Below, one piece after another: positions 3,384-56,724 of a stretch of DNA of 64,000 nt. The translations under genes were made by a program, and so were the position numbers. How positions within the stretch are numbered: the first letter of the stretch is position 1; every line of letters begins with the position of its first letter. This DNA is from Gammaproteobacteria bacterium (lineage in GTDB: Bacteria > Pseudomonadota > Gammaproteobacteria > Eutrophobiales > Eutrophobiaceae): the NCBI GenBank assembly GCA_963422205.2, contig CAXMWX010000012.1:114800-178799 (forward strand), in the 5' to 3' direction. The notes under the pieces were generated by a model. That model was not told where the DNA came from. It saw only the letters and a program-made list of their open reading frames with translations, and searched no databases.

Positions 3384-4450
3384 ATGATGCGGATCTGTCA
3401 AATCATATTAACCCCTGGAAGAGAATTTGGCGGTGTTGAGCGCTATGCCGTTGATCTGACCAGGGCGCTGTGTGAACGGGGCCATGAGGTGCTGGCTGTC
3501 TCAGTGCGTGGCTCTGAGTGTAACGCCTTATTTCAAGCCACACCCAACTTGCAGCAGGCCCCGCTCTCCCCATGCCGGGTGTTCAGGATCAAGAAATGGT
3601 TTCCCTTTGTCGCCAGCAAAATACAGCGTATCCTCGCTGATTTTAAGCCCGATGTGGTGCAGGCACAGCAAACTCCGGCCGTCTACTATGGCGCTAAAGC
3701 AGCCAGAGAACTGAAGCTGCCGCTGATCGCACATATTCATAATGACTACGTTAAGCTCAAGTATTACCGCCACGCCGACAGGTTCATCCCGCCAACAGAT
3801 ACGATATCTCACTACCTGAGAAGCAATCATATTCCGGCGGAGAAAATCAGCCTGATCCGGAACTTCTCCGCCCTGGCCGCAGTGGAGCGCATCAAAGCAC
3901 GTCAAATTACGGGGGGGGGGTGAAAACCATCGTCAGTCTGGGGCGTTTCAGCCATGAGAAGGGGTTTGATGTGCTGTTGGCGGCATTAACGAAGATCAGC
4001 GATCAGACCATACAGCTTCATCTCGCCGGTGATGGCAAGGAGCGCGGGCGCATTAAGAAATCAGTCGCCGCATACCGGTTGGAAGACCGGGTGCGGCTCA
4101 TCGGCTGGCGGCATGAGGTGCGCGATTTTCTCATGCAGGGCGATCTGTTTGTGCTGCCCTCCCGCTATGAAGCCTTTGGCATTGTCCTGCTGGAGGCGAT
4201 GGCCTGTGGCATTCCCATCGTCACCACAGACTGTGACGGGCCGCTGGAGATCCTCGATGAGAGCTGCGCCTGGTTCTGCAAGGCGGGCAGTGCAGACTCC
4301 CTGGCCGCTGCCATAGCAGAGGCGCTGGCCGACCCGGTCGGCAGGCAGTTACGGGCCGAGAATGCCTTGCAGCGCTACCGGGACAGGTACACACTGGATC
4401 AGGCCGTGCTGAAATTCGAAGCACTGTATCAACAGCTGGCCGGGGCGTAG
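3384..4450 (+). pseudogene. GT4 glycosyltransferase split by a frameshift at a G10 tract (phase-variable or assembly error)
   Basis: 3384..3923 is the N-half (FGGVERY) and 3920..4450 the C-half (EAFGIVLLEAMACG); both are collinear with the intact paralog 6137..7192. Confidence 0.85.
3911..3920 (+). repeat. Poly-G (G10) tract at the GT4 domain junction
   Basis: attac-GGGGGGGGGG-tgaaaacc; G8 or G11 restores the frame. Confidence 0.95.
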
Positions 4451-12280: not shown

Positions 12281-14865
<2,585 letters not shown>

Positions 14866-14915
14866 TTGACGTTGATGTAAATAATCGTATCTGGTAATTG
14901 GAACAATTAGTATTT

Positions 14916-15854
14916 ATGCCGCTTTTTGAAATAAACAAACTTAAACTTGCTTCCATAGAGCAATCAAATTTTAATCTTGAAAAAGATCTTCAGGATCTCA
15001 TAGAGAAAAATATAGACGTCGTTTTTAACAGCCGATTAGTGGCGTCTGAATTTCGTACTGGGACTGTGCATGCGGAAAGAATTGATACACTGGCCATTTC
15101 AGAAGATAGCAACCCGGTCATTATAGAATACAAGAAAGTAGAATCTTCAGATATGATCAATCAAAGTCTTTTCTATTTATCATGGATAAACGATCATAGA
15201 GGTGATTTTGAAATCGCCGCCAGGAATGCTGTGGGTAATGATGTGCAAGTGGACTGGTCAGATATTCGGGTTATATGTATTGCGCCAAATTATAAAAAGT
15301 ATGATTTACATGCCGTGCAGATGATGGGGGCAAATATAGAACTTTGGACTTACAGGCTTTTTAAAAATAATAGTCTTTACTTGGAAAAAGTATTCAGGAA
15401 ATCATTAACTTATTCAAGCGCTATTGATGATTCTTCCGGCAAGAATCCGGTCATGGTTGCCGCCGGGAAGAAGGCGACCATAACCAGAGCCACGGGCTCA
15501 TATAGTATAGAGCAACATTTAAAGGGAAAGTCAGATAAAATAAATAAACTGTTTACCAGTATTCAGGAATTCATTTTGGGATTAGATTCTGCAATAGAGG
15601 AGGTACCCAAGAAAAAATATATAAGTTACAGAATCTCTCAGAACATTGCTTATGTAAAGATTCAGTTAGGCAAAATTCTTATATATTTAAAACTGAAAAC
15701 AAAAGATATTGATGTATTGCCGGATAACGCAAGAGACGCAACTGATATTGGTTATTTCGGTACAGGAGATATTGAAGTCAGTATAAAAAATGATGACCAA
15801 CTGGAATCTGCAAAACCATTGATTACTAAAGCCTATCAAAAAATAGGCGGATAA
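14916..15854 (+). CDS. NucS/DUF91-like PD-(D/E)xK nuclease fused to DUF5655-like domain
   Basis: LEKDLQ...RIDTLA...PVIIEYKK...Q.L.Y; C-terminal KKYISY...GYFGTGD; AT-rich. Confidence 0.7.
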   Translation: MPLFEINKLKLASIEQSNFNLEKDLQDLIEKNIDVVFNSRLVASEFRTGTVHAERIDTLAISEDSNPVIIEYKKVESSDMINQSLFYLSWINDHRGDFEIAARNAVGNDVQVDWSDIRVICIAPNYKKYDLHAVQMMGANIELWTYRLFKNNSLYLEKVFRKSLTYSSAIDDSSGKNPVMVAAGKKATITRATGSYSIEQHLKGKSDKINKLFTSIQEFILGLDSAIEEVPKKKYISYRISQNIAYVKIQLGKILIYLKLKTKDIDVLPDNARDATDIGYFGTGDIEVSIKNDDQLESAKPLITKAYQKIGG

Positions 15855-16028
15855 ATGACAGACAAGCCGTGCCTATTAGAATATGCCTTATGATGAAGGT
15901 GATGTGATGTTGGGCCGGGTGGCGATGAAGGTAAAGAAAAACGCCGGTATTAGTGACCGGCGTCGGGCCGAGGCACGAAAACCTCGGTGTTGTTTGCAAG
16001 GATGATAACCATGCCCGTAGATTTGTCA

Positions 16029-16133
16029 ATGTCCATTGACACTCAGACACTCCGGGCTGTGGTTTATATCGACGGCTATAACCTTTACTACGGGATGCGG
16101 GAAGCACCCGGTGGCAAGTATAAGTGGATTTAA
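16029..16133 (+). pseudogene. N-terminal fragment of a NYN (LabA/DUF88) domain protein
   Basis: AVVYIDGYNLYYGM...KYKW then stop. Confidence 0.6.
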
Positions 16134-16387
16134 TAGCGAATTTTGAACTGACCAAACACGCTGTACAGGTTATGGAAGAAAGGCAAATTCCTGTGGCATG
16201 GGTGGAACGTACTATGACGTCGCCAGAATTACGATTGCCTGATCCGAATGATGAGGAAATAGAAAGACGTTTTCTCAGAATTCCCGAGTCTGGCGGCAGA
16301 GTATTGCGGGTGGTCGTCAATAATAAGGCTGTACCGGAGTTGATTGTAAGTGTATTCTTTGATCGAAGCATGAGAGGTAAATTATGA
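16124..16387 (+). CDS. DUF4258-like (RelE-type) putative toxin
   Basis: LTKHA..MEERQI...GRVLRVVV....IVSVFFDR; ATGA overlap with the next gene. Confidence 0.75.
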   Translation: MDLIANFELTKHAVQVMEERQIPVAWVERTMTSPELRLPDPNDEEIERRFLRIPESGGRVLRVVVNNKAVPELIVSVFFDRSMRGKL

Positions 16388-16584
16388 AACTGCACGTAGA
16401 CAAAGAAGCCGATGCGCTTTATCTGCGCCTGGATGATTCAAAAATCGTCGAATCGGATGAGGTGGCGCCTGGCGTTGTTCTCGATTATAGCGAGCAGAAT
16501 GAAGTGGTTGGCATCGAAATTCTGCACCTGTCCCGGCGCACCCCGGACCTGAAAACAAATGCGCTGGAATTCGAAGCGGTTTAA
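16384..16584 (+). CDS. DUF2283 putative antitoxin
   Basis: DKEADALYLRL...ESDEVAPGVVLDY.....VVGIEIL. Confidence 0.85.
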   Translation: MKLHVDKEADALYLRLDDSKIVESDEVAPGVVLDYSEQNEVVGIEILHLSRRTPDLKTNALEFEAV

Positions 16585-16596
16585 TCTGCTGTTAAT

Positions 16597-16631
16597 TTAA
16601 GGACGCCCTGAGTTAATCAGCGTTTCCTTAA
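16597..16631. mobile_element. Collapsed IS/MITE terminal inverted-repeat footprint
   Basis: ttaaggacgccctga-gttaa-tcagcgtttccttaa; imperfect IR bounded by TTAA. Confidence 0.4.
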
Positions 16632-16805
16632 CTGGCAAACCGAAAGCCGAAGAAGATTTATAGCCGATAAAGTAAAAGTCTGGTCTCGAAGTACATTTTT
16701 CCGACGTTGCCGGTTACGGAAAAGCGACTGCGAATGACGCATTGACGGAACGGTGAATCGGTTTCACTATTCCTGGCGTTAGCCGACTCAGCAAGAACAA
16801 GCCGC

Positions 16806-17027
16806 TCACTGCTGTTTCGGCTGAATGGCCAGTTCATTGATCGTATCTTCCCAACCCCCAAGCTGTGGTTTCGACCAGTCGCCATAGGCCCGCCTGGTGG
16901 TAATGCGTCCGTGCGCTGCTATCTCATCGAGACTATCTTTCAGCTTCGATTTCTCTGCATTCTCGGCATCAATCAAAACGGCGATGTTATTGTGTTTAGC
17001 CAAGCCTGTCATCCGCATCCCCTGCAA
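16806..17027 (-). pseudogene. Truncated NYN (LabA/DUF88) domain protein
   Basis: IAVLIDAENA...GRITTRRAYGDWS...W...AIQPKQQ then stop. Confidence 0.75.
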
Positions 17028-17217
17028 CCCGGGCCTTACACAACATGGACTTTCAGCTTGCGCCTGTCAAGAGCAGCGAATCCGTATGCTTCCACCTGCT
17101 CTACCATCTCCCAGAAATTATCACACCGGGCGTGATCTGCTGATTTGTCCGACATCTGAATGACCTGGTCGACATCCAGAAAGCAGCACCCCTCATCACT
17201 ATTCTAAACAGGCGGCG

Positions 17218-18270
17218 TCAGGGCCTTACAAGCGGCGGGGGGGGGGGGGGGGGTAACAGCAATTTTTTGATTGATGCCTTGATGTAGCGATACATCGCTT
17301 CGCGCCTGCTTTCCCGGGGGAGATAGGGAAGAATGCGTTTTCTATGCAGTAGCGGCACATTCCCGTCACCGTACTCGCCCCGTTCAATCCGTTCAATCAA
17401 GGTGATTAACATGGGCGGAATGTTGTATTCGTAAAGCACCAGATCACGTGCCTGCAAAAGCTCTGCCCGGTATTTTTGGTCAAATGCGTGCAGAATAGCG
17501 TGGTCGATAAGAGTAACCGCTCGATCAAAATCATGGATGTCTATGGACAAAAAGGCGTTCTCTGGAAAATACTGATTTAAATTCGGGCAGCCATAGTAGA
17601 CAGGATACGTGCCGGTTAAAATACAATCATTCAACTTTTCCGTAAAATAGTGCTCAGATGATGTATTCTCCAGGGCAATGTGAAAACGATACGCCCCAAG
17701 AGCCTCCAGCTTATCTTGCACGGGCGCAAAGCCACGGCCATAAAAATCCAGTCTCTCCCCGTAATGCGCTTTAAGCCTTTGAGCAAACTGAAAACGCACT
17801 CTGTGTGGATCAGAATGATTCTTGTGTTGTGAAGCAATCACAGAGAGCAGTTTGGATTTGGGGTGTTCAAAGAGGGTGGCCACCTGATGAAGATCCATGG
17901 GCATGGAAAAATCCTTGCCTACCCACCAGGCGTGCCCCCCGCAATGAGGGATCTCTCCCGCCTGGCTTGTAGTCTTTCCTAACCCGGTGTGCCAGGCAAA
18001 TTGCGCCCGGTAGTCTTCAGGGTACAGACCAATATCCCCCAGCGGTGGCTCCGTTGCGATATGAATGGTGTTTTGCTCAGGACACAAAGGCTTAATCGGA
18101 TGGGGCAGATCATCATAGACCACAAGGTAGTCATAGTTTTCCTTATCAGCATTTAATAAAAAGCACCATTCACCCCATTGGGGGATGGAGTCGGGAAAGA
18201 ATCGCAACCACAAAGGATCAAGGTGTACTGAGCAGACATTAATGGTTCTTGTAGTCAATGCGTATTCCAA
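17218..18270 (-). CDS. Glycosyltransferase family 10 (alpha-1,3/4-fucosyltransferase-like)
   Basis: YRFHIALEN...YFTEKLNDCILTGTYPVYYG motif; poly-C tract near the C-terminus. Confidence 0.8.
   Translation of the reverse strand: MEYALTTRTINVCSVHLDPLWLRFFPDSIPQWGEWCFLLNADKENYDYLVVYDDLPHPIKPLCPEQNTIHIATEPPLGDIGLYPEDYRAQFAWHTGLGKTTSQAGEIPHCGGHAWWVGKDFSMPMDLHQVATLFEHPKSKLLSVIASQHKNHSDPHRVRFQFAQRLKAHYGERLDFYGRGFAPVQDKLEALGAYRFHIALENTSSEHYFTEKLNDCILTGTYPVYYGCPNLNQYFPENAFLSIDIHDFDRAVTLIDHAILHAFDQKYRAELLQARDLVLYEYNIPPMLITLIERIERGEYGDGNVPLLHRKRILPYLPRESRREAMYRYIKASIKKLLLPPPPPPPLVRP
17237..17253. repeat. G17 (C17 on coding strand) homopolymer
   Basis: Direct read; encodes the poly-Pro end of the GT10. 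Confidence 0.9.
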
Positions 18271-44660: not shown

Positions 44661-45470
44661 ATGCGATATCTGTTAATTCTGCTGTTTTCGTTATTTATTT
44701 CCGTGGAAATTTATAGCAACGAGGAAATAAGCAGAAGCGGTGGCGGCGAACCAATCTCATATAGACCATATAGCGTTGGCGGTGGCGGCGAGGAGATCCC
44801 ACCTAAAGACTGGCAAGGCTTAATGATAGCCCCTGAAAATCGCTGTTCACCTTACGATAAGAAAAAGGACTATCCCTACACACAGTCGGTTGAGCAGCAG
44901 ATTGTCGCTGAGATGGGTGGTCGTATTTATGGCCCTTACACAGGGCGGACATTCACCGATACGGGGCAGACCGATATTGAGCATATCGTGGCTGCTTCGG
45001 AGGCGCATGACAGCGGCTTGTGTGCAGCGAGTGCAGCAACCCGAAAGGCATTTGCTCAAGACACGCTTAACCTGACGCTGGCCAGCCCAGAAGTGAACCG
45101 CTATCAAAAGCGTGGCAAGGATGCAGCCGAGTGGCTACCGGACAAAAACCAGTGCTGGTTTGCTGATCGCATTGTTCAGGTGCGGCAGAAGTATCATCTC
45201 ACTATTGACAGGCAAGAGGCTGAGATGTTGGAGAGTGTGTTATCTGAGTGTAGTTCGGTGGAGATGGTGTTTTATGCTGATGATGCTCCGGTCGTTGCGC
45301 CTGAACCGGCTGAGGATACTGTTGATGCGCTGTTGTTATGGGATGACAATGGCAATGGTCGGATTACTTGTGCTGAGGCCAAGCGTCACGGGATTGCGCC
45401 AGTGCCGAGCGACCATCCGGCTTATCGTTATATGCGGGATGGGGACGGCGATGGCATGGTGTGTGAGTGA
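44661..45470 (+). CDS. Secreted HNH (DUF1524-like) nuclease with Excalibur Ca-binding domain
   Basis: Signal peptide; GPYTG, DIEHIVA..EAHDSG, NL..ASPEVNRYQK, W.P; C-terminal C.EAK..G..P.....PAY...DGDGDGMVCE. Confidence 0.8.
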   Translation: MRYLLILLFSLFISVEIYSNEEISRSGGGEPISYRPYSVGGGGEEIPPKDWQGLMIAPENRCSPYDKKKDYPYTQSVEQQIVAEMGGRIYGPYTGRTFTDTGQTDIEHIVAASEAHDSGLCAASAATRKAFAQDTLNLTLASPEVNRYQKRGKDAAEWLPDKNQCWFADRIVQVRQKYHLTIDRQEAEMLESVLSECSSVEMVFYADDAPVVAPEPAEDTVDALLLWDDNGNGRITCAEAKRHGIAPVPSDHPAYRYMRDGDGDGMVCE

Positions 45471-45499: not shown

Positions 45500-46324
45500 A
45501 TGAATATGTCTAAGCAAATTGATCCGTATGAAACCAGGCTGCATCCGGGGAATGCCTACTGGATGGCTAAAATTTCAAAGCTCATTTATGCGTGTAAAGC
45601 AGGCAGTAAACACCCTGATGAGGCATTGATATTAAGTCAATTAAAGGACGAGGATTCGGGTTTTCTTTCTGTTGTGGGCGAGGATAAAAATACTGCCCAG
45701 GCAGCCTTGATAGAGCATAAGGATTTTTTATGCATGGTTTTCCGGGGTACTGATGAGTTGGGGGACTGGTTGGACAACATTAATGCGTTTCCTGTAAAAG
45801 TGTTGTTTGGTGATTTTCATCGTGGTTTCTGGGGTTCTGTTAATGATGTTTGGGACAAGATAAATGGTCGGTATGAAGAATGCCGGGGAGAGAGAAAGCG
45901 GCCTTTATTTATCACTGGGCATAGTCTGGGTGGTGCGATGGCCACGATAGCGGCTTCAAGGCTTATTCATGACGATAAGCCATTTACTTCAGTTTATACA
46001 TTTGGTCAGCCAAGGGCGATGAGCCGTGAGACGGCTCAGTTTTTTAGTGTAGAGGCTAAAGGACGTTGTCACCGGTTTTTAAATAATGAAGACATTGTCA
46101 CCCGTGTCCCCTCAAGATTGATGGGGTATGGGCATGTTGGTAATTGTTTGTATATTGATGCGAAGGGGAAAATCTATAACAACCCGGGTTTATGGTTCAG
46201 GTTTTTAGATGTGGTTGAAGGGGCACTGGATACTATTAAAAAAGCGGGTAGTTTAGGCGCTATTGATGATCATGATATTGACAAGTACCTGAGTGCGGTA
46301 GAGAGGTGGGATGTGGATTTCTAA
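45500..46324 (+). CDS. Lipase class 3 (alpha/beta hydrolase)
   Basis: VFRGT, HRGF, ITGHSLGGAMA, YTFGQPR, DIVTRVP, DHDI..Y. Confidence 0.9.
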   Translation: MNMSKQIDPYETRLHPGNAYWMAKISKLIYACKAGSKHPDEALILSQLKDEDSGFLSVVGEDKNTAQAALIEHKDFLCMVFRGTDELGDWLDNINAFPVKVLFGDFHRGFWGSVNDVWDKINGRYEECRGERKRPLFITGHSLGGAMATIAASRLIHDDKPFTSVYTFGQPRAMSRETAQFFSVEAKGRCHRFLNNEDIVTRVPSRLMGYGHVGNCLYIDAKGKIYNNPGLWFRFLDVVEGALDTIKKAGSLGAIDDHDIDKYLSAVERWDVDF

Positions 46325-46817: not shown

Positions 46818-46842
46818 TTTTATTAAAACGTTTTAATAGAAC
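46818..46842. promoter_or_regulatory. Late-promoter palindrome, copy 1
   Basis: ttttattaaaacgttttaatagaac with core palindrome TATTAAAACGTTTTAATA; identical copy at 53846. Confidence 0.75.
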
Positions 46843-48207: not shown

Positions 48208-48528
48208 ATGAGCCAGCACTTACTGGAAGTCAATCAGAAAAAGATCGTGCGCTGGCGCATCTTAAAGACTTTGGATGCGGGTCGTCCGGTGCCGGTGAAG
48301 GATGGGTTGTTATTGCAGGTGATTAACGATTGTGATCTGCATACCACCCGCACGGGCTTGTTACGGGCTTTGAATTACCTGGAAGAGAAGGGTTATGTCA
48401 GGACAGAGAAGAGGCACATTGCCGGTGTGGGTGAGGTGCTTGATGCCAGCTTAACGGCCAAGGGCATTGACTTCATTGATTACACTTTGCCTGACGATGC
48501 AGGCATTCACCGGCCGGTGCCGCTCTGA
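48208..48528 (+). CDS. Winged-helix protein (Mu gp26-like position)
   Basis: RWRILKTL...LNYLEEKGYV...LTAKGIDF....GIHRP. Confidence 0.7.
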   Translation: MSQHLLEVNQKKIVRWRILKTLDAGRPVPVKDGLLLQVINDCDLHTTRTGLLRALNYLEEKGYVRTEKRHIAGVGEVLDASLTAKGIDFIDYTLPDDAGIHRPVPL

Positions 48529-48610
48529 GGACAGAGGATAGATGTTAGGGGATACCGCTTCACGGCATACCTATTCTCTGTCTTCTGACCTCTGACTTCT
48601 GTTATCTGAC
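48529..48610. repeat. Inverted heptamer-array element, copy 1
   Basis: ggacaga/ggataga/tgttagg - core ataccgcttcacggcat - tctgtct/tctgacc/tctgact/tctgtta/tctgac. Confidence 0.7.
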
Positions 48611-50636: not shown

Positions 50637-52040
50637 ATGAACATGTTGGATAAAATCCTTTCACCATTTAAGAAAACACCGGCGCCCGTGCGCGAGGCCT
50701 TCGGTGCAACAGTGGATGAGGACGAGACCAACTGGCGCCCCTTGACCGCCGACAGCCAGCGTGACCTGCCGGTCTTGACTGCCCGGCGGATGCGGGAGAT
50801 CTCCACCTGGCTGTGGCAGAGTAACTTGCTGGCCAACCGCCTGATTGAACTGCCGGTGGCTTATCTCTTGGCCGAGGGAGTCTCAGTCAAGGTGACCGAT
50901 ACCGAAGCACAAGCCGCCATCAATGCCTTCTGGTCTGATCCCATTAACCGCATGGACATCAAGCTGCCGAGGAAGGTACGGGAACTGGCGCTGTTTGGTG
51001 AGCAGTGCTGGCCGGTGTTTGTCAATCCCGTCAATGGCCATGTGAGGTTAGGTTATCTTGATCCAGAGCTAATTGAGACAGTGGTGACCGATCCGGACAA
51101 TGCCGAGCAGCCGGTTGGGATTGTGACCCGGCGGGGCAAGCATGGCAAGGCCAGACGTTATCGCATCATCATCAACGGCCCGGAGAGTTGTTTCTCGCCT
51201 CGTACCTGCAAGCTACGTGCGGGCTTTACTGATGGGGCATGTTTTTATTTCACGCTGAACAGTTTAAGCACGGGTCGGCGTGGGCGGGGTGACTTGCTCG
51301 CCCAGGCGGACTGGCTGGATGCCTATGAGCAGTTCATGTTTGGTGAGCTTGACCGGGCGAACTTCATGCGCAGCTTTATCTGGGATGTGGAGCTTAAAGG
51401 AGCTACACCGGACGAGGTCAAGCAGCGCACCAAGCACATCCATGCCCCCGCCCCGGGGACAGTGCGGGTGCATAATGAGGCCGAGGTCTGGAATGCTGTC
51501 ACGCCGGAGTTAAAGTCTGCCGATTCCAGTCAGGTCGCCAGGCTGTTCAGAAATCATATCTTAGGGGGAGCCACCATGCCGGAGCATTGGCATGGCGGGG
51601 GTGGGGATGTCAATCGGGCAACGGCCTCGGAGATGGGCGAGCCGACCTTCAAGATGTATTCCATGCGGCAAAGAGAATGGAAATATATCCTGGAAGAGCT
51701 GGCCACCTTTGTCATTAACCGCCGCTATGACCCGTCAGGCGAAGAGATGCTGATCGATGTGTTCAACCCCGATCCGGACTTCATACCAGAGGCTATATTC
51801 CCGGAGCTGACCACCCGTGACACGACAAAATACGCCTCGGCCTTGCAGCAGGTGACGGTGGCCGTGGGCTTAGGTGTGGAGCGGGGTTTGATGCCAGAGT
51901 TACTGGCCGTCAAGCTAATCCAGAGTGTGGCTGAACGCTTAGGTGTGGAATACGAGGCAGAAACGGAACTGGAACAAGCCAGGGCGGAAGCGGCCGAGCG
52001 GGCCGAGGCGGATACATTCGGTGAACCAGAAGACAGATGA
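50637..52040 (+). CDS. Probable portal protein
   Basis: 467 aa between terminase and MuF; PEHWHGGGGDVNRATA. Confidence 0.7.
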   Translation: MNMLDKILSPFKKTPAPVREAFGATVDEDETNWRPLTADSQRDLPVLTARRMREISTWLWQSNLLANRLIELPVAYLLAEGVSVKVTDTEAQAAINAFWSDPINRMDIKLPRKVRELALFGEQCWPVFVNPVNGHVRLGYLDPELIETVVTDPDNAEQPVGIVTRRGKHGKARRYRIIINGPESCFSPRTCKLRAGFTDGACFYFTLNSLSTGRRGRGDLLAQADWLDAYEQFMFGELDRANFMRSFIWDVELKGATPDEVKQRTKHIHAPAPGTVRVHNEAEVWNAVTPELKSADSSQVARLFRNHILGGATMPEHWHGGGGDVNRATASEMGEPTFKMYSMRQREWKYILEELATFVINRRYDPSGEEMLIDVFNPDPDFIPEAIFPELTTRDTTKYASALQQVTVAVGLGVERGLMPELLAVKLIQSVAERLGVEYEAETELEQARAEAAERAEADTFGEPEDR

Positions 52041-53521
52041 CAGAGGACGAAGGACGTAACAAACGCTTCAAGGCAGCACAGCGAGAAGTCATCAAGCAGC
52101 GTACTGCCATCCAACGGGAGACTGCCAAAGAGATCACCCGTCTGCTTAAGGTCTCGCTGGATAAGGTTACGGCTGCCCTGGCTGCCCAGCCGAGTGATTA
52201 TCAGCAATGGGCATTGCCGCCCTTGAAGCAATCCATACAGCGCACCCTGCATGAACTATCCGCTAAGGCCAGTGCGGCGGGTGAGCAGGGCATGGTTGAT
52301 GCCTGGGGTGCAGGCAAGGACGTGGTGGATGCACCGCTCACCGCTGGCGGTATTAATCTGCAAGGTATTGCCCAGAGCATGGACACTCGCCAGTTATTCG
52401 CCATGCGGGAGTTTATGACGGTGAGGATACAGGATATTTCAGTTAAGGCCATGAACCGCATCAACAGCGAGCTGGGCTTGATTATCACGGGGATACAATC
52501 GCCCAGCGAGGCAGTGGGTAACATCGCCTGGGTATTGAATGAGACCTCCAGGCGGCGGGCAATGACCATTGTCAGAACTGAACTAGGCCGGGCCTTCTCG
52601 GTGGCCAGCCACGAGCGCAGCGTGCAGGCCAAAGACATCCTGCCGGGTTTGAAGAAACAATGGCGGCGGTCGGGGAAGACCCATTCCCGTCCTGCCCATG
52701 ATGCGGCTGATGGGCAGATACAGGAAGTGGATAAGCCGTTTACCCTGGGAAATGGCATCCAACTGCTGCACCCGCTTGACCCCGCCGCCCCCGCATCAGA
52801 GACCATTAACTGTGGCTGTGTGGCACTGGACTACATGGCACACTGGGAGATGTCACAGCCAGGGGCAAAACCCTTTAGTGCCGATGAGCTTGCCCGCAAG
52901 CGGGCGGCACAGGGACACGCCGTGGCAAGCGGTCATACCCTGGCTGCACCCAGACGTTCAGGAAACCGCAATAAGGCCCGTCCACCCGTCCAGGGTAACG
53001 TAGCCAGACAGAAGTCAGGTCGCCGGGTGCAGCGTGTGATCGCTGAGTATGAGAACAAGTGGGCTGGCCTGCCCGTAGAGAATGCCGTGATCATCTCCAA
53101 GTCTGGTGAGGTACTGGCAGAGACGGCGGGCAGTGAGATGCAGGTGGGTTTTACCCGCTCAGAATTACGCAAGATGAGAGGCGCCATTGTGTTGCACAAT
53201 CATCCGGATGTGGCGTCTTTTTCCAAGGATGATATTGCCACGGCTGCCACACAGCGAGTGGCCGAGATACGGGTAGTGGATGCACAATACACCTACAGCA
53301 TGAAACCAGCTAAAGGGGGCTGGAATAAAACCCTGTGGCAGAAAATCATAGAACCAGCTATGGTTGATGCTGGATCAAAGGTTTACAAGCGTATGCGAAA
53401 AGCTGAACACGATGGTAAAATGACCCAGGCACAGTTTGATGCGGATCACTACCATGAGGTATGGGAAGACGTGGCAAAACAAACTGGCATTATTTATAGA
53501 CGACAGAAGAGACAAAAGTAG
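52037..53521 (+). CDS. MuF/SPP1 gp7-like head protein with C-terminal JAB/MPN-like extension
   Basis: RAMTIVRTE, KQW...RPAH...DGQ, P.DP...ETINCGC; after a basic linker, ENAVII...LHNHPDVASFSKDD. Confidence 0.85.
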   Translation: MTEDEGRNKRFKAAQREVIKQRTAIQRETAKEITRLLKVSLDKVTAALAAQPSDYQQWALPPLKQSIQRTLHELSAKASAAGEQGMVDAWGAGKDVVDAPLTAGGINLQGIAQSMDTRQLFAMREFMTVRIQDISVKAMNRINSELGLIITGIQSPSEAVGNIAWVLNETSRRRAMTIVRTELGRAFSVASHERSVQAKDILPGLKKQWRRSGKTHSRPAHDAADGQIQEVDKPFTLGNGIQLLHPLDPAAPASETINCGCVALDYMAHWEMSQPGAKPFSADELARKRAAQGHAVASGHTLAAPRRSGNRNKARPPVQGNVARQKSGRRVQRVIAEYENKWAGLPVENAVIISKSGEVLAETAGSEMQVGFTRSELRKMRGAIVLHNHPDVASFSKDDIATAATQRVAEIRVVDAQYTYSMKPAKGGWNKTLWQKIIEPAMVDAGSKVYKRMRKAEHDGKMTQAQFDADHYHEVWEDVAKQTGIIYRRQKRQK

Positions 53522-53727
53522 TGAAACGGCTTGACCCTGCCCATCCTCGCGCTGTCTACAGTCCGGTGTGTTTTCACTGCGAGCATGCCACCTCTATGGT
53601 ATCGCGCCTTTGTGAAGCTTTCCCCGATGGTATTCCGCATGAGATCTGGATAGGCGAGAACAAACATACTGAACCCTACCCAGGCGATAACGGCATCCAG
53701 TTTGAGCAGTACCAGCCGGATAAGTGA
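53521..53727 (+). CDS. Small Cys/His protein (candidate immunity/partner of the MuF extension)
   Basis: CFHCEH...CEAFPDGIP.EI..G...H..PYPGDNGIQFE; start overlaps the MuF stop. Confidence 0.75.
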   Translation: MKRLDPAHPRAVYSPVCFHCEHATSMVSRLCEAFPDGIPHEIWIGENKHTEPYPGDNGIQFEQYQPDK

Positions 53728-53845
53728 AGCGCTTGCCTGCTTAGTTATTTCATCTATTCTGAAACTCTTTTCCCTATTTGAAAATCTGACGCCAGACTAG
53801 TCACGCATCTGCTCTTAACCCTTGCCTGTAACCCTATGCTAAGGG

Positions 53846-53870
53846 TTTTATTAAAACGTTTTAATAGAAC
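53846..53870. promoter_or_regulatory. Late-promoter palindrome, copy 2
   Basis: 25-bp identity with 46818-46842; TATGCT at 53888. Confidence 0.75.
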
Positions 53871-53935
53871 AGCGTATTTGGCTGCTCTATGCTTTGCTCC
53901 AGGTAACTATCTGTAGTGATTCAGGAGCTAATGTC

Positions 53936-54166
53936 ATGTTCGTCAAAGATAAACCCGAAGATAAACCTGCCACGACAGCCAGCCAGCTAACGAAAGCACA
54001 AGCGGCGAAGCTGGTGAGACGCCCAGTTGAAGAAATTAAGAATGGCAAGACCATCACAAAAGAGGTCGCCATTAAGCCTGAGGAGGTGTTTAGCTTTACT
54101 GAGTATGCCGATCATATCGTGGTGGTCACGACCGATGGTCGGAAGTACCGGGGAGACAAGAAATGA
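53936..54166 (+). CDS. Phage hypothetical protein
   Basis: AGGAG RBS; HIVVVTTDGRKY. Confidence 0.65.
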   Translation: MFVKDKPEDKPATTASQLTKAQAAKLVRRPVEEIKNGKTITKEVAIKPEEVFSFTEYADHIVVVTTDGRKYRGDKK

Positions 54167-54306
54167 AGGCTGGCCGCTCCTGTGCATCCTTAGCACCGCG
54201 GCATACGACCGCTAGGGAAGGCGGAGCAGCCATCGTTCCTGACGATGGCTTTGCATACACTCCATCCCTGGAGATAAATGTCGTGAATGCAGGAGCAAAT
54301 TCATGA
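54167..54306. repeat. Cluster of AGGA/TCCT-loop hairpins inserted before the capsid gene
   Basis: Five stem-loops; first unit recurs inverted at 58374-58406; bounded by ATGA on both sides. Confidence 0.65.
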
Positions 54307-56627
54307 CCGCACATCCTGTACATATCCCTGAGACTGGCATTGAGGGTGAGGTACGCTTAAAAGAAGCGGCCGCCGGGGATTATCAGGCCATCATGGACTT
54401 GGTACGGGCGGCAGTAACGGCAGCGCTCTACCCCGGAGAGGCCAACCGCTATATCGGCATGGAAGCGATTTATGCTGATCGGGTCATCATCAACAAGGGT
54501 GATGGGCGGTTGTGTTCTTATCCTTATACCCTCAATGAGGCTAATCAGGTAGAGCTGGGACAACCGGAAGAGGTGATTGTCGATCATCAGCCGGTGACTG
54601 GGCAGATGACGGAAGCGAGTGGGGCGTTCATTGAAGCGGTCAACGGCACGGATGATGCGGTGGGTTTGAACTACAACGTCCGTATCATCCGTGCCGGTGT
54701 CTCGGCCAACCGCAATTACTACACCGATGCGGTGCTGCGGGAAGCTGCGCCTTTGTTCAGTGGGGTGCGTGTGTTTGCCAAGAGTGATGATGAGCATATC
54801 AAGGGCGGTGGCAAGGACTTCAGCAAGTTAATCGGTCGTATCAGTGAGGCCAGGTTTATCCCTGGCGCCTCGGCCGATACCGGTGAAGTCCAGGGCCGGC
54901 TGGAGTTACTTAAATCCGCCTCCCCCATTCCTGAGAAAATCTATGAAGCCTATCAACGGGGGATGCACAACGATTTGTTTGGTTTTTCTATTGATGCCAG
55001 TGCCAGGATCAAGCGCCGTCAGGTGGCGGGTGTGCCAGTCAGAGAGGCGGTACATTTGGGCAAGGTCAACTCTCTGGACTTGATTATTGAGCCGAGTGCC
55101 GGTGGTGAGATTATTCAACTGATTGAAGCGGTTAATGAGGAGCATAACGACATGAAACTACGAGAGCGAATGGTTGAGGCAGTCAGGTCTGCCCACAACG
55201 GGGTGTTACCGACAGGCTTGGATACCGATGATGATGCGGCACTGGAGCGTGCGTTCCGGGAGGCAGCGGCCAGAGAAGGCCGGCAGGGTCATCCAGAGAC
55301 GTCACCCCCTGCTGGGGTGACTGAGCAGCAACTCAACGACACGGTGCGCATGGTGGAAGCACGGGCGGATATGCGGGTGGCCATAGCTGAGTCCGGCCTG
55401 CCGGCCAAGGCGAGGCAGCGCCTTATCGATGACTTTGCCCGGCGGGATGCCTTTACTGAGGCTGATGTGGTCGAGGCAATCAAGACCGAGAAGGAGTATA
55501 TCAGCACCTTAAGCAACGATGGCCATGTGACTGGCCTGGGTGAGGGATCGGTGATTGAGGCTGGCGAGGGTCAGCCGGAGAAGCTGGCTAAGATGTTTGA
55601 TGCGTTCTTTGATGCAAGCAATCGTGAGGTGGTCAGTATCAAGGAGTGCTATATCCACGTAACGGGCGATAAGCGTGTGACTGGACGGCTTCAGGACTGT
55701 GATCGTGCCAGGCTGCGTGAGGCCGCCGGCCCGATGCGTGAAGCCATTGACAGTGCCACCTTTGCGAATGTCTTAGGAGATTCCATCACCCGGCGCTTAA
55801 TCGGCGATTACCGGCAAACATCGCATTATGATGTCTGGCGTTATCTGGCTGGCACTCCCGTGCCATTGAATGACTTTCGCAGCAATGAGCGCACCCGCAT
55901 GGGTGGCTATGGCGACCTGCCCGCCGTGGCCCAGGGCGCAGGCTATCAGGCCTTAAGTTCGCCCACCGATGAGAAGGCCAGCTATGCGGTGACCAAGCGT
56001 GGGGGTACCGAAGAGGTGACCCTTGAGACCATCAAGAACGATGATGTCGGGATCATTATGCGCATCCCCATGAAGCTGTCCCGCGCAGCGAGGCGTACCT
56101 TGTCCAAGTTCGTGCTGGACTTTATCAAGGATAACCCGACCATCTATGACAGCAAGACCCTGTTCCATGCCAGCCGGGGTAACTTAGGGGATGCCGCTTT
56201 ATCAGCCGATACCCTGGCCGCCGCCAGGATTGCGGTGTTAAAGCAGACCGAGTTATCATCTGCCGATCGCATCGGTATCCCGCCAGTTAATCTGTGGGTG
56301 CCGTTTGACCAGGAAGAGACGGCCTTTAATCTGTTCCGCCGGCAGAACAACAACGACACCACCTTTGTGCAGTCCCTGCAGATGACTGTCCTGCCGGTAT
56401 GGTACTGGACAGATGCCAATGACTGGGCGGTGAGCGCCGATCCGAATGACATTCCCATCATGGAGTTGGGTTTTCTGGACGGCAATGAAGAGCCGGAGTT
56501 ATTCGTGCAGGATAATCCGACGGTGGGGTCACTGTTTTCTCACGATAAAATCACCTACAAAATCCGTCATATCTATGGTGGCAATGTGGTGGATTATCGT
56601 GGTGTATACAAGTCGGTAGTCGGATGA
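54303..56627 (+). CDS. Fused prohead protease/scaffold-major capsid protein
   Basis: IIRAGVSANRNYY, GFSI, SLDLIIEPSAGG (protease-like); C-terminal GFLDGNEEPE...YKIRHIYG....DYRGVYK (gpT-like capsid). Confidence 0.82.
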   Translation: MTAHPVHIPETGIEGEVRLKEAAAGDYQAIMDLVRAAVTAALYPGEANRYIGMEAIYADRVIINKGDGRLCSYPYTLNEANQVELGQPEEVIVDHQPVTGQMTEASGAFIEAVNGTDDAVGLNYNVRIIRAGVSANRNYYTDAVLREAAPLFSGVRVFAKSDDEHIKGGGKDFSKLIGRISEARFIPGASADTGEVQGRLELLKSASPIPEKIYEAYQRGMHNDLFGFSIDASARIKRRQVAGVPVREAVHLGKVNSLDLIIEPSAGGEIIQLIEAVNEEHNDMKLRERMVEAVRSAHNGVLPTGLDTDDDAALERAFREAAAREGRQGHPETSPPAGVTEQQLNDTVRMVEARADMRVAIAESGLPAKARQRLIDDFARRDAFTEADVVEAIKTEKEYISTLSNDGHVTGLGEGSVIEAGEGQPEKLAKMFDAFFDASNREVVSIKECYIHVTGDKRVTGRLQDCDRARLREAAGPMREAIDSATFANVLGDSITRRLIGDYRQTSHYDVWRYLAGTPVPLNDFRSNERTRMGGYGDLPAVAQGAGYQALSSPTDEKASYAVTKRGGTEEVTLETIKNDDVGIIMRIPMKLSRAARRTLSKFVLDFIKDNPTIYDSKTLFHASRGNLGDAALSADTLAAARIAVLKQTELSSADRIGIPPVNLWVPFDQEETAFNLFRRQNNNDTTFVQSLQMTVLPVWYWTDANDWAVSADPNDIPIMELGFLDGNEEPELFVQDNPTVGSLFSHDKITYKIRHIYGGNVVDYRGVYKSVVG

Positions 56628-56705
56628 CAGAAGGCAGAGGACAGATGATAGAGAATGCCACTCTGCGGCATCCTCATTCTCTGTCATCCGTATTCCGTCC
56701 TCTGT
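56625..56705. repeat. Inverted heptamer-array element, copy 2
   Basis: tgacaga/aggcaga/ggacaga/tgataga - core atgccactctgcggcat - tctgtca/tccgtat/tccgtcc/tctgt. Confidence 0.7.
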
Positions 56706-56724
56706 AATGGGCAGACTGTAGAGC

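Follow-up and report, generated by a model that had tools for sequence, protein, structure and literature searches.

The locus studied here, in a 64-kb stretch of a gammaproteobacterial genome (contig CAXMWX010000012.1, positions 114,800 to 178,799; this whole stretch is called the window below), raises the question of what kind of enzyme a prophage carries at the C-terminal end of its MuF head protein, and what the small protein encoded directly downstream may do for it. The two genes encode a 494-amino-acid (aa) protein composed of a MuF part, a basic linker and a JAB-like domain (hereafter, MuF-JAB), and a 68-aa Cys/His protein (hereafter, the small protein). The TAG stop of the first gene (53519-53521) and the GTG start of the second (53521) overlap by 1 nucleotide (nt). 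An earlier note on this DNA had read the pair either as a polymorphic toxin with a zinc-binding immunity protein or as a capsid-borne deconjugase of ubiquitin-like (Ubl) proteins. We favor a form of the former, with a probability of about 0.5: by analogy with other MuF fusions, the 494-aa protein would be a capsid-borne effector or toxin with a divergent JAB domain of the RadC branch, delivered with the phage DNA, and the small protein would be its dedicated partner, likely an immunity or antitoxin-like inhibitor.

The N-terminal part of the 494-aa protein is, judged from profile matches, a MuF minor head protein. PF04233 (Phage_Mu_F) matches aa 169-263 with 38.7 bits (cut-off 29.6), and phrog_2468 (head morphogenesis) matches aa 15-264 (E = 3.5e-27). 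The MuF domain was expected to end at ETINCGC and to be followed by a basic linker, and this is what we found: ETINCGC corresponds to aa 255-261, the Pfam match stops at aa 263, and a basic run (RKRAAQGH..PRRSGNRNKARPP..RQKSGRRVQR) extends from about aa 285 to ~aa 333, entering the first helix of the JAB-like domain. The linker of P0163, the closest relative found (69% identical overall), has diverged and contains a 13-residue gap, as expected for a flexible tether.

The E/HxH/S/D signature that the earlier note had reported in the C-terminal ~170 aa is present. E348 lies in VENAVII and H387-N-H389-P-x5-S396-x2-D399 in LHNHPDVASFSKDD, and E348, H387, H389, S396 and D399 are the predicted metal and catalytic residues. 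The HNHP..S..D signature is typical of RadC. Searches of aa 321-494 alone against Pfam (E ≤ 10), NCBIfam and PDB sequences gave no significant match, nor did a profile of 42 sequences of the domain run against PDB sequences. Exhaustive phmmer searches revealed a family of 1952 representative proteins (50% clustering) at E ≤ 1e-3, 471 of them at E ≤ 1e-10 and 8 at E ≤ 1e-30. Among the best 150 of these 1952, 62 have ≤260 aa (solo size), 69 have 261-700 aa and 19 have >700 aa. A Pfam scan of 33 of the 150 detected Phage_Mu_F in 13 and Phage_min_cap2 in one (14 MuF-type proteins); others of the 33, in proteins of up to 3010 aa, add ADP-ribosyltransferase (ART), DRAT, 2H phosphoesterase, DnaJ, lipase, LRAT, XkdF protease and inteins. 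The combinations with ART, DRAT, 2H phosphoesterase and lipase match, by analogy, the picture of polyvalent proteins and MuF effectors drawn in the available parts of PMC5512222. Six giant relatives (P0002, P0005, P0009, P0011, P0034 and P0039) contain 2-4 tandem JAB-like copies with an intact motif, possibly forming intramolecular JAB pseudo-dimers. In an alignment of 42 sequences, comprising the domain and solo homologues (domain numbering + 320 = protein numbering), H67, H69, D79 and Y167 are invariant and E28, N68, P70 and S76 are conserved in ≥90%. Across the best 150 representatives, HxH..SxxD is kept in 165/169 domain copies (those covering at least 120 profile positions) and in 145/150 proteins.

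A JAB/MPN-type fold, the other expectation for this domain, agrees with its predicted structure. The AlphaFold2 model, built from the 42-sequence alignment, has a mean predicted local distance difference test score (pLDDT) of 96.9 and a predicted template-modeling score (pTM) of 0.90, and in it HxH ends a strand (64-68) and S..D opens a helix (77-85). The leading Foldseek matches in the PDB are almost all JAB/MPN proteins, with CSN5 first (E = 3.9e-3). RadC (2qlc) was matched with E of 6.4e-3 to 9.5e-3 and probabilities of 0.97-0.99 over ~107 columns (template-modeling score (TM) on target 0.40-0.45), and other matches include PfJAMM1 (probability 0.98), an Rpn11 homologue, the Prp8 Jab1 domain, AMSH, the Bil deubiquitinase (8tyx_B, E = 4.1e-2), Cap3 (9ild_A, E = 8.9e-2) and a few deaminase-fold RibD entries. 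Of the viral models in BFVD, 36 matched at E ≤ 1e-3, mainly "minor capsid protein" fusions and RadC-like JAB proteins. Fold matches in eukaryotic large DNA viruses were also seen in BFVD (E = 1e-5 to 1e-3), namely Frog virus 3 3R, African swine fever virus F317L, EsV-1-200 and IIV3 229L. The Pfam RadC model matched sister copies in P0005 (28.8 bits) and P0009 (28.1 bits; cut-off 22.1) and, more weakly, in P0039, at positions inside the JAB-like copies. Among the 42 aligned members, four matched RadC weakly (best 0.034) and two matched Prok-JAB weakly, and RadC is also among the Atlas leads, which comprise unnamed clusters at 0.93-0.95 and weak named ones. Given these sequence and model comparisons, we conclude that the C-terminal domain is probably a divergent member of the JAB superfamily with an intact catalytic motif, nearest to the RadC clade.

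The small protein displays the pattern that had been described for it, i.e., C17-x2-C20-x-H22, C31, FPDGIP and H49, encoded by a gene that overlaps the MuF-JAB stop. It matches phrog_33375 (unknown function; E = 3.2e-7), and no Pfam or NCBIfam match was obtained. A word-limited homologue search returned 12 relatives of the small protein and two MuF-JAB proteins of near-full length, low counts that reflect the search method and not rarity; scanning genome contigs with the small protein gave 360 pattern matches, and tblastn confirmed 295 of them. The best 80 of these (79 loci) span many bacterial phyla as well as Methanosarcinales, Methanothrix and Methanocella. We aligned the window's protein with 61 sequences taken from 80 candidate references, 11 long-branch rows having been dropped before these 80 were listed. 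In these 62 sequences C17, C20, C31, P35, I42 and H49 are invariant and H22 is kept in ≥90%, which argues for a metal site of the Cys3-His (plus His) kind in the small protein. The invariance of C17, C20, C31 and H49 also supports the GTG start, and thus the 68-aa reading, over a start at the internal Met26. The AlphaFold2 model of the small protein (pLDDT 84.6) has little regular secondary structure, a Foldseek search of it against the PDB gave one meaningless match (E = 8.2), and its Atlas neighbors are unnamed, mostly viral clusters.

The linkage between the small gene and the JAB-like domain was profiled in the best 80 of the 295 copies (79 loci), ranked by similarity to the window's protein, so that the counts describe its nearer relatives. 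Open reading frames (ORFs) of these loci, from crude longest-ORF gene calls, were searched with a hidden Markov model of the JAB-like alignment, and Pfam was run on 221 neighboring ORFs (at most two upstream and one downstream per locus). A JAB-like domain adjoins the small gene in 21 of the 79 loci. A long JAB-like protein (at least 412 aa, and up to at least 1076 aa) ends at the small-gene start in 12 of them; 11 of these proteins were scanned (all but that of L023), with PF04233 detected in seven, Phage_min_cap2 in two and no MuF match at threshold in L008 and L080. MuF-JAB fusions followed by the small gene are also found on contigs of Methanolobus, Methanosarcina and other Methanosarcinales (L009, L013, L027, L036 and L067), which places the module in archaeal proviruses too. 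The other nine loci have a stand-alone JAB-like gene (127-279 aa) adjoining the small gene, co-directional in eight and divergent in one (L006). The scanned neighbors of five stand-alone genes (L004, L005, L007, L010 and L011) are cellular genes (M16 peptidase, methyltransferase, WD40, PhyH, LysR, PALP and ABC transporter), and three solo cassettes are from one metagenome-assembled genome (MAG; L005, L007 and L019, the last at a contig end). These solo cassettes show that the JAB-like domain and the small gene are linked independently of MuF. The HxH..SxxD motif is kept in 20 of the 21 JAB-adjacent copies (L004 and L030 are N-terminally short), and overlapping or abutting small-gene starts, as in the window, occur in many other loci.

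Nine of the 15 upstream genes that are MuF-type by Pfam carry the JAB-like domain. In a phage collection, 657 records match the whole 494-aa protein, almost all via MuF, and three match the JAB-like part; 9/15 against 3/657 is a rough comparison, the phage figures being from single-sequence tblastn. The small proteins themselves also differ: W43 is present in 21/21 JAB-linked copies and 21/41 others, and S14 in 20/21 and 11/41 (raw counts, relatedness uncorrected). We conclude that the small gene and the JAB-like domain are linked far above chance, in an association that is real but not exclusive. The idea that the small gene is a partner of extended MuF proteins stands in so far as it recurs next to the JAB-like domain; the MuF C-termini that co-occur with the FPDGIP family also include others, among them two MuF-ART fusions.

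In six loci the MuF-type protein upstream lacks a JAB-like domain (L025, L031, L033, L069, L074 and L075). A hidden JAB-like domain in these six proteins was sought with hhalign and rejected (probability <1% in all, with controls at 99.5-100%). There are two related cases, with the small gene preceding a MuF gene in L047 and following an ART fragment in L071. About 50 loci have neither a MuF nor a JAB-like gene; their contexts include restriction-modification methylases, Salinivenus/Rhodothermales neighborhoods, cation diffusion facilitator (CDF) zinc transporters and tandem arrays. In L015, L019 and L062 the small gene is <200 nt from the locus end, with the upstream side out of view. Tandem small genes (2-4 copies) occur in L020, L025, L035, L043, L044, L052, L057 and L070. 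CDF zinc transporter genes (Cation_efflux and ZT_dimer) lie directly 3' of small genes in a methanogen (L012, 4920-5195) and in a Dehalococcoidales MAG with three tandem small genes (L052, 3830-5195), an adjacency that hints at a metal-related role for some members of the family. A tree of the small proteins was calculated from 92 rows and 64 columns, leaving out rows with E > 1e-10 (L046 and one L043 copy). A JAB-linked clade could not be resolved on it (48/88 forks open). L033, L069 and L028 form the clade starred on this tree, which is, as far as the tree indicates, a distinct small-protein subclade beside another toxin type. In Brevibacillus phage Jenst the small gene is inside a DNA-metabolism region.

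How could such a pair work? In the preferred reading, the MuF part would take the JAB-like enzyme into the capsid, as in other MuF fusions, with the flexible basic linker tethering the domain to it. The enzyme would then enter the next host cell together with the phage DNA and act there as an early effector or toxin. Its substrate may be a nucleic acid or nucleotide, as predicted in the literature for the RadC and Tox-JAB clades, or alternatively a peptide or isopeptide; the affinity to these two clades, together with the lack of a Ubl system in view, favors the former over Ubl deconjugation. The translationally coupled small protein, with its putative Cys3-His metal site, would bind the JAB-like domain, most likely as a dedicated partner and most plausibly as an inhibitor that silences the enzyme in the producing cell. 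The data themselves cover the gene structure, the MuF assignment, the fold and motif, the size and architectures of the family and the counts of genomic linkage; that the protein is packaged and injected, that it is active and bound by its partner, and which way the partner acts on it, are what we infer. The coupled downstream gene, the mobile cassettes, the orphan and tandem copies and the subclade together resemble the immunity superfamilies of polymorphic toxins, and the loci with orphan or tandem small genes (L043, L052, L057 and others) resemble the polyimmunity loci described in PMC3482391 and PMC11699363, as far as the available parts of these papers go. A wider reading, which we offer tentatively, is that the JAB-like domain and the CCCH protein constitute an undescribed, widely mobile two-gene toxin-immunity or toxin-antitoxin module, free in bacterial and archaeal chromosomes and repeatedly fused to MuF by bacterial and methanogen phages, with orphan and tandem small genes as stockpiled immunity.

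Several observations weigh against a toxin with a dedicated inhibitor, and many of them would fit a small protein that is a general zinc-binding protein (a regulator, a metal-handling protein or an accessory of the head module) often following MuF, its adjacency to JAB being secondary. The small gene follows MuF-ART fusions in L033 and L069, MuF2 proteins in L031 and L074, and other MuF proteins in L025, L075 and Flavobacterium phage lotta8-2, where it overlaps the end of a MuF gene without a JAB-like domain; the coupling is equally tight in these. The ~50/79 loci with neither gene include conserved chromosomal contexts in Salinibacter-like genomes, with synteny kept in Salinivenus/Rhodothermales (rhodanese, sulphur transport, TonB receptor and fructosamine kinase), and the copies 5' of CDF zinc transporters would fit metal handling. 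JAB adjacency is scattered over the small-protein tree, requiring at least 13 changes on this poorly resolved topology. Of the three phage records with a JAB-like match, CL131 and FNU_1P had no small-gene homologue near the domain, and in the third (MT837107) the small gene is beside MuF-JAB on the opposite strand, at a contig edge. The small protein is 86% identical to its nearest relatives, against 66% for the enzyme domain, and its EPYPGDxGIQFE motif is nearly invariant whatever the context; a fast-evolving immunity protein would seldom be so conserved. According to the available parts of PMC11699363, one small ORF next to the toxin gene of the Bxa MuF-ART cluster failed to neutralize the toxin. 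The enzyme assignment has its own weak points: no Foldseek match in the PDB reached E ≤ 1e-3 (TM 0.3-0.5, root-mean-square deviation 4.5-5.5 Å over ~107 columns), the window's own copy matched nothing in the sequence databases named above, and in the model the JAB core is decorated with a helix at the N-terminus and a long helical hairpin at the C-terminus. On the other side, nine MuF-free solo JAB-like genes directly adjoin the small gene, five of them with cellular scanned neighbors; the JAB-like domain is in 9/15 small-linked MuF genes against 3/657 MuF-matching phage records; and W43 and S14 set the JAB-linked copies apart. Weighing the immunity-like pattern against the strong conservation, we rank a dedicated and probably inhibitory partner first and a general zinc protein, which we regard as unlikely, second. 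What became of the toxin-and-immunity proposal is mixed: the MuF part, the temperate phage and the conserved adjacent gene fit it, and the small gene is not exclusive to it.

Two further readings concern the enzyme. The JAB-like domain could be a morphogenetic or self-processing peptidase, cutting the MuF linker, head proteins or segments of polyvalent proteins, and not an injected effector. JAB enzymes of known activity, among them structures matched by Foldseek, are peptidases or isopeptidases; a long basic linker precedes the domain; giant proteins have 2-4 copies between other domains, and release of effectors by peptidase domains was proposed for polyvalent proteins in the available parts of PMC5512222; and solo copies are found in virion modules, e.g., Aphanizomenon phage CL131 gp044 in the head-to-tail gene interval. 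Such a role is nonetheless quite improbable, given that the prophage already has a protease-capsid fusion (phrog_4523 and phrog_133), that solo JAB-like and small-gene cassettes have cellular scanned neighbors without phage structural genes, and that the nearest sequence relatives are RadC and not known processing peptidases. Least probable, and in our view very doubtful, is a capsid-borne deconjugase directed against the Ubl modifiers of anti-phage systems (Bil, CBASS Cap2) or against eukaryotic ubiquitin, the second proposal of the earlier note. The intact catalytic motif, the well-timed arrival with the DNA and the fold matches to Bil deubiquitinase 8tyx_B, Cap3 9ild_A, PfJAMM1 with SAMP2 and AMSH with ubiquitin would suit it, but these Ubl-enzyme matches are weaker than or equal to RadC, with none at E ≤ 1e-3, and the sequence affinity is to RadC (Pfam matches of sister copies and the Atlas lead). 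The parts of PMC5512222 and PMC3482391 consulted predict that the groove for the Ubl tail is not kept in the RadC and toxin JAB clades. No Ubl, E1 or E2 gene was detected by Pfam among the 56 window ORFs, no PADLOC match was obtained for the pair or four neighbors, and literature searches turned up no report of a phage JAB counter-defense protein. The Ubl target found no support in the window. The family is also very widespread, in bacteria, methanogen proviruses and a cyanophage, and occurs in cellular two-gene cassettes, a distribution more in line with a toxin-like module than with a countermeasure against rare systems.

The genomic setting agrees with a head-module origin of the effector proposed above (Table 1). 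Pfam scans of the 56 window ORFs detected host genes up to ~31.8 kb (hrcA, grpE, dnaK, dnaJ, NAD kinase, recN, fur and bamE), followed by a Mu-like prophage with Mor, GemA, Gam, an AAA ATPase, an rve transposase, an S24/CI repressor, a GH108 endolysin, a Mu gp27-like protein and TerL; the portal, without a Pfam match, was identified by PHROG. The prophage is, by its gene content, Mu-like, transposable and temperate. The MuF gene is directly 3' of the portal gene in the head module, with TerL upstream and the capsid downstream, and the order after the portal is the 494-aa protein, the 68-aa protein, a 90-aa ORF, a 774-aa protease-capsid fusion and tail genes. Locus nucleotide searches gave no match in the phage collection (blastn) or in E. 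coli genomes (megablast), and PADLOC had no match for the 494-aa protein, the 68-aa protein or four neighbors. A late promoter had been thought to close the pair. A 25-nt palindrome, with exactly two sites in the 64 kb and 0 expected by chance (94% identity over 31 nt), stands just past the pair, 5' of the 90-aa ORF and the capsid genes, and its other copy precedes the endolysin gene. Its position right after the pair fits the idea of a new late unit starting there; no sigma-70-type promoter or intrinsic terminator was detected in 53400-54400. The two copies are a candidate late-activator (Mor/C-type) site marking two late units.

Table 1 Coordinates of the MuF-JAB pair and of other features in the window.
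Feature	Position	Strand	Basis or remark
Portal gene	50637..52040	+	phrog_10963 portal protein, E 2.9e-65; stop overlaps MuF-JAB start
MuF-JAB gene, 494 aa	52037..53521	+	ORF list
MuF region, aa 1 to ~270	52037..52846	+	PF04233, phrog_2468, ETINCGC
Basic low-conservation linker, ~aa 271-320	52847..52996	+	Sequence; diverged in relative P0163
JAB-like (probably RadC-clade) domain, aa 321-494	52997..53518	+	Family conservation, AlphaFold2 model, Foldseek
Small protein gene, 68 aa, CCCH(+H)	53521..53727	+	ORF list, GTG start; phrog_33375, E 3.2e-7; conserved C17/C20/C31/H49
25-nt palindrome, candidate late regulatory site	53846..53870		Repeat D9; other copy 46818-46842
90-aa ORF	53894-54166		No Pfam, PHROG or PADLOC match
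Protease-capsid fusion, 774 aa	54303-56627		Phage_capsid_4 at aa 480-771; phrog_4523 and phrog_133
Two cargo genes	44661-45467 and 45500-46321		GmrSD_C nuclease-like + Excalibur domain protein; class 3 lipase (Pfam)
79-nt intergenic repeat	48527-48605 and 56630-56708		71% identity; ends of late gene blocks
Short repeats	from 52026, 56620 and 58526		Rich in GACAGAGGACAGA; late gene block ends
dnaJ ORF, 192 aa	22253-23393	-	J domain and part of zinc-finger region
Split glycosyltransferase (GT4)	3384-3923 and 3920-4450		Glyco_transf_4 and Glycos_transf_1; 4-nt overlap
Intact GT4 paralogue, 351 aa	6137-7192		Neighbors the split GT4
Low-GC island	14001-18000		GC 0.45-0.49 vs about 0.56-0.6 around

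Some further features of the window were recorded. The 90-aa ORF that separates the small gene from the protease-capsid gene occupies the slot (MuF/neck to protease-scaffold interval) where Casadabanvirus JBD5 has anti-CRISPR genes. The long N-terminal region of the protease-capsid fusion is the part that matches head-maturation protease PHROGs. The two cargo genes are between the repressor and the lysis genes, and PADLOC had no match for either. Among the host genes, dnaJ is just 192 aa and is overlapped by a second ORF on the - strand in another frame, which could be a frameshift or a sequencing error; the low-GC island contains a DUF5655 protein and a family-10 fucosyltransferase-like gene.

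What is new here has to be separated from what is already catalogued. MuF proteins with RadC are in Table S5 of Jamet et al. 2017 (PMC5576092), JAB-fold toxin domains (Tox-JAB-1 and Tox-JAB-2, the latter DUF4329) were described in 2012 (Zhang et al., PMC3482391), and RadC domains in polyvalent proteins in 2017 (Iyer et al., PMC5512222), each cited here for the parts available to us. The literature searches found no paper on this JAB-like domain with its CCCH partner. The earlier view that the pair has no characterized function holds in the literature searched, its architecture having more precedent than that view implied, and the combination of a Pfam-invisible JAB-like family with a recurrent CCCH partner appears to be undescribed there. 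Of the ways in which temperate phages load enzymes into their capsids, MuF fusions are understood least, and just two MuF enzyme types, Apk2 and Bxa, are characterized in the available parts of PMC12226406 and PMC11699363. The JAB-like family is large (1952 representatives), invisible to Pfam and has kept its catalytic residues in MuF, giant polyvalent and solo proteins, and to know its substrate would inform the long dispute over what RadC-type JAB proteins do. The CCCH family, with at least 295 genomic copies in bacteria and archaea, lacks annotation or a fold match. Since the two pair recurrently, if not exclusively, the small protein, as a candidate inhibitor or cofactor, offers a concrete way into the biochemistry of the JAB-like domain.

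Among known systems, the closest in layout are the MuF polymorphic toxins (PMC5576092, PMC12226406 and PMC11699363, in their available parts), for which adjacent immunity genes are established in Apk2 and Bxa and for which a toxin followed by a small ORF is a pattern of temperate phages (PMC5576092 and PMC11699363). They share with MuF-JAB the MuF N-terminus, a variable C-terminal enzymatic domain, the post-portal position, the temperate phage and the small downstream ORF. They differ in that the C-terminal domain here is unrecognized by the Pfam RadC or any other model, that the gene downstream is from a broad CCCH family whose members are not tied to a single type of toxin, and that toxicity and neutralization are, for the pair here, postulated by analogy. 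Ct_MAD, as described in the accessible text of Jamet et al. 2017, is likewise an unannotated C-terminal MuF extension in temperate proteobacterial phages, carried by F proteins of the Mu/D3112 type; identity with it was rejected, hhalign giving a probability of 0.22% for the JAB-like profile and gp32, the MuF protein of JBD5 and a listed Ct_MAD carrier.

The Tox-JAB-1 and Tox-JAB-2 toxins, in the parts of PMC3482391 available, are similar in having a C-terminal JAB-fold domain on a delivery module followed by a small immunity gene, and the presence of Tox-JAB-2 in nucleocytoplasmic large DNA viruses is echoed by the BFVD matches of the domain here to such viruses. Unlike these toxins, neither the domain nor the 42 aligned members match PF14220 (Tox-JAB-2/DUF4329), for which the Atlas lead is only 0.77; the immunity families published in that part of the source (Imm65 and Imm-NTF2-2) are not CCCH mini-proteins, and MuF is not among the delivery modes listed there. 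With regard to RadC-like JAB proteins (PF04002; 2qlc), the window's copy differs in having no Pfam match even at E ≤ 10 and, in the minimal form, a spacing from HxH to S that is shorter by one residue, and resembles them in HNHP..S..D, in the best-probability fold match and in the weak-to-moderate Pfam matches of sister copies. For both the RadC and the Tox-JAB clades, a nucleic-acid or nucleotide substrate is predicted in the available parts of PMC5512222 and PMC3482391, and, like the RadC domains in polyvalent proteins described in the former, the domain studied here also occurs in giant multi-effector phage proteins.

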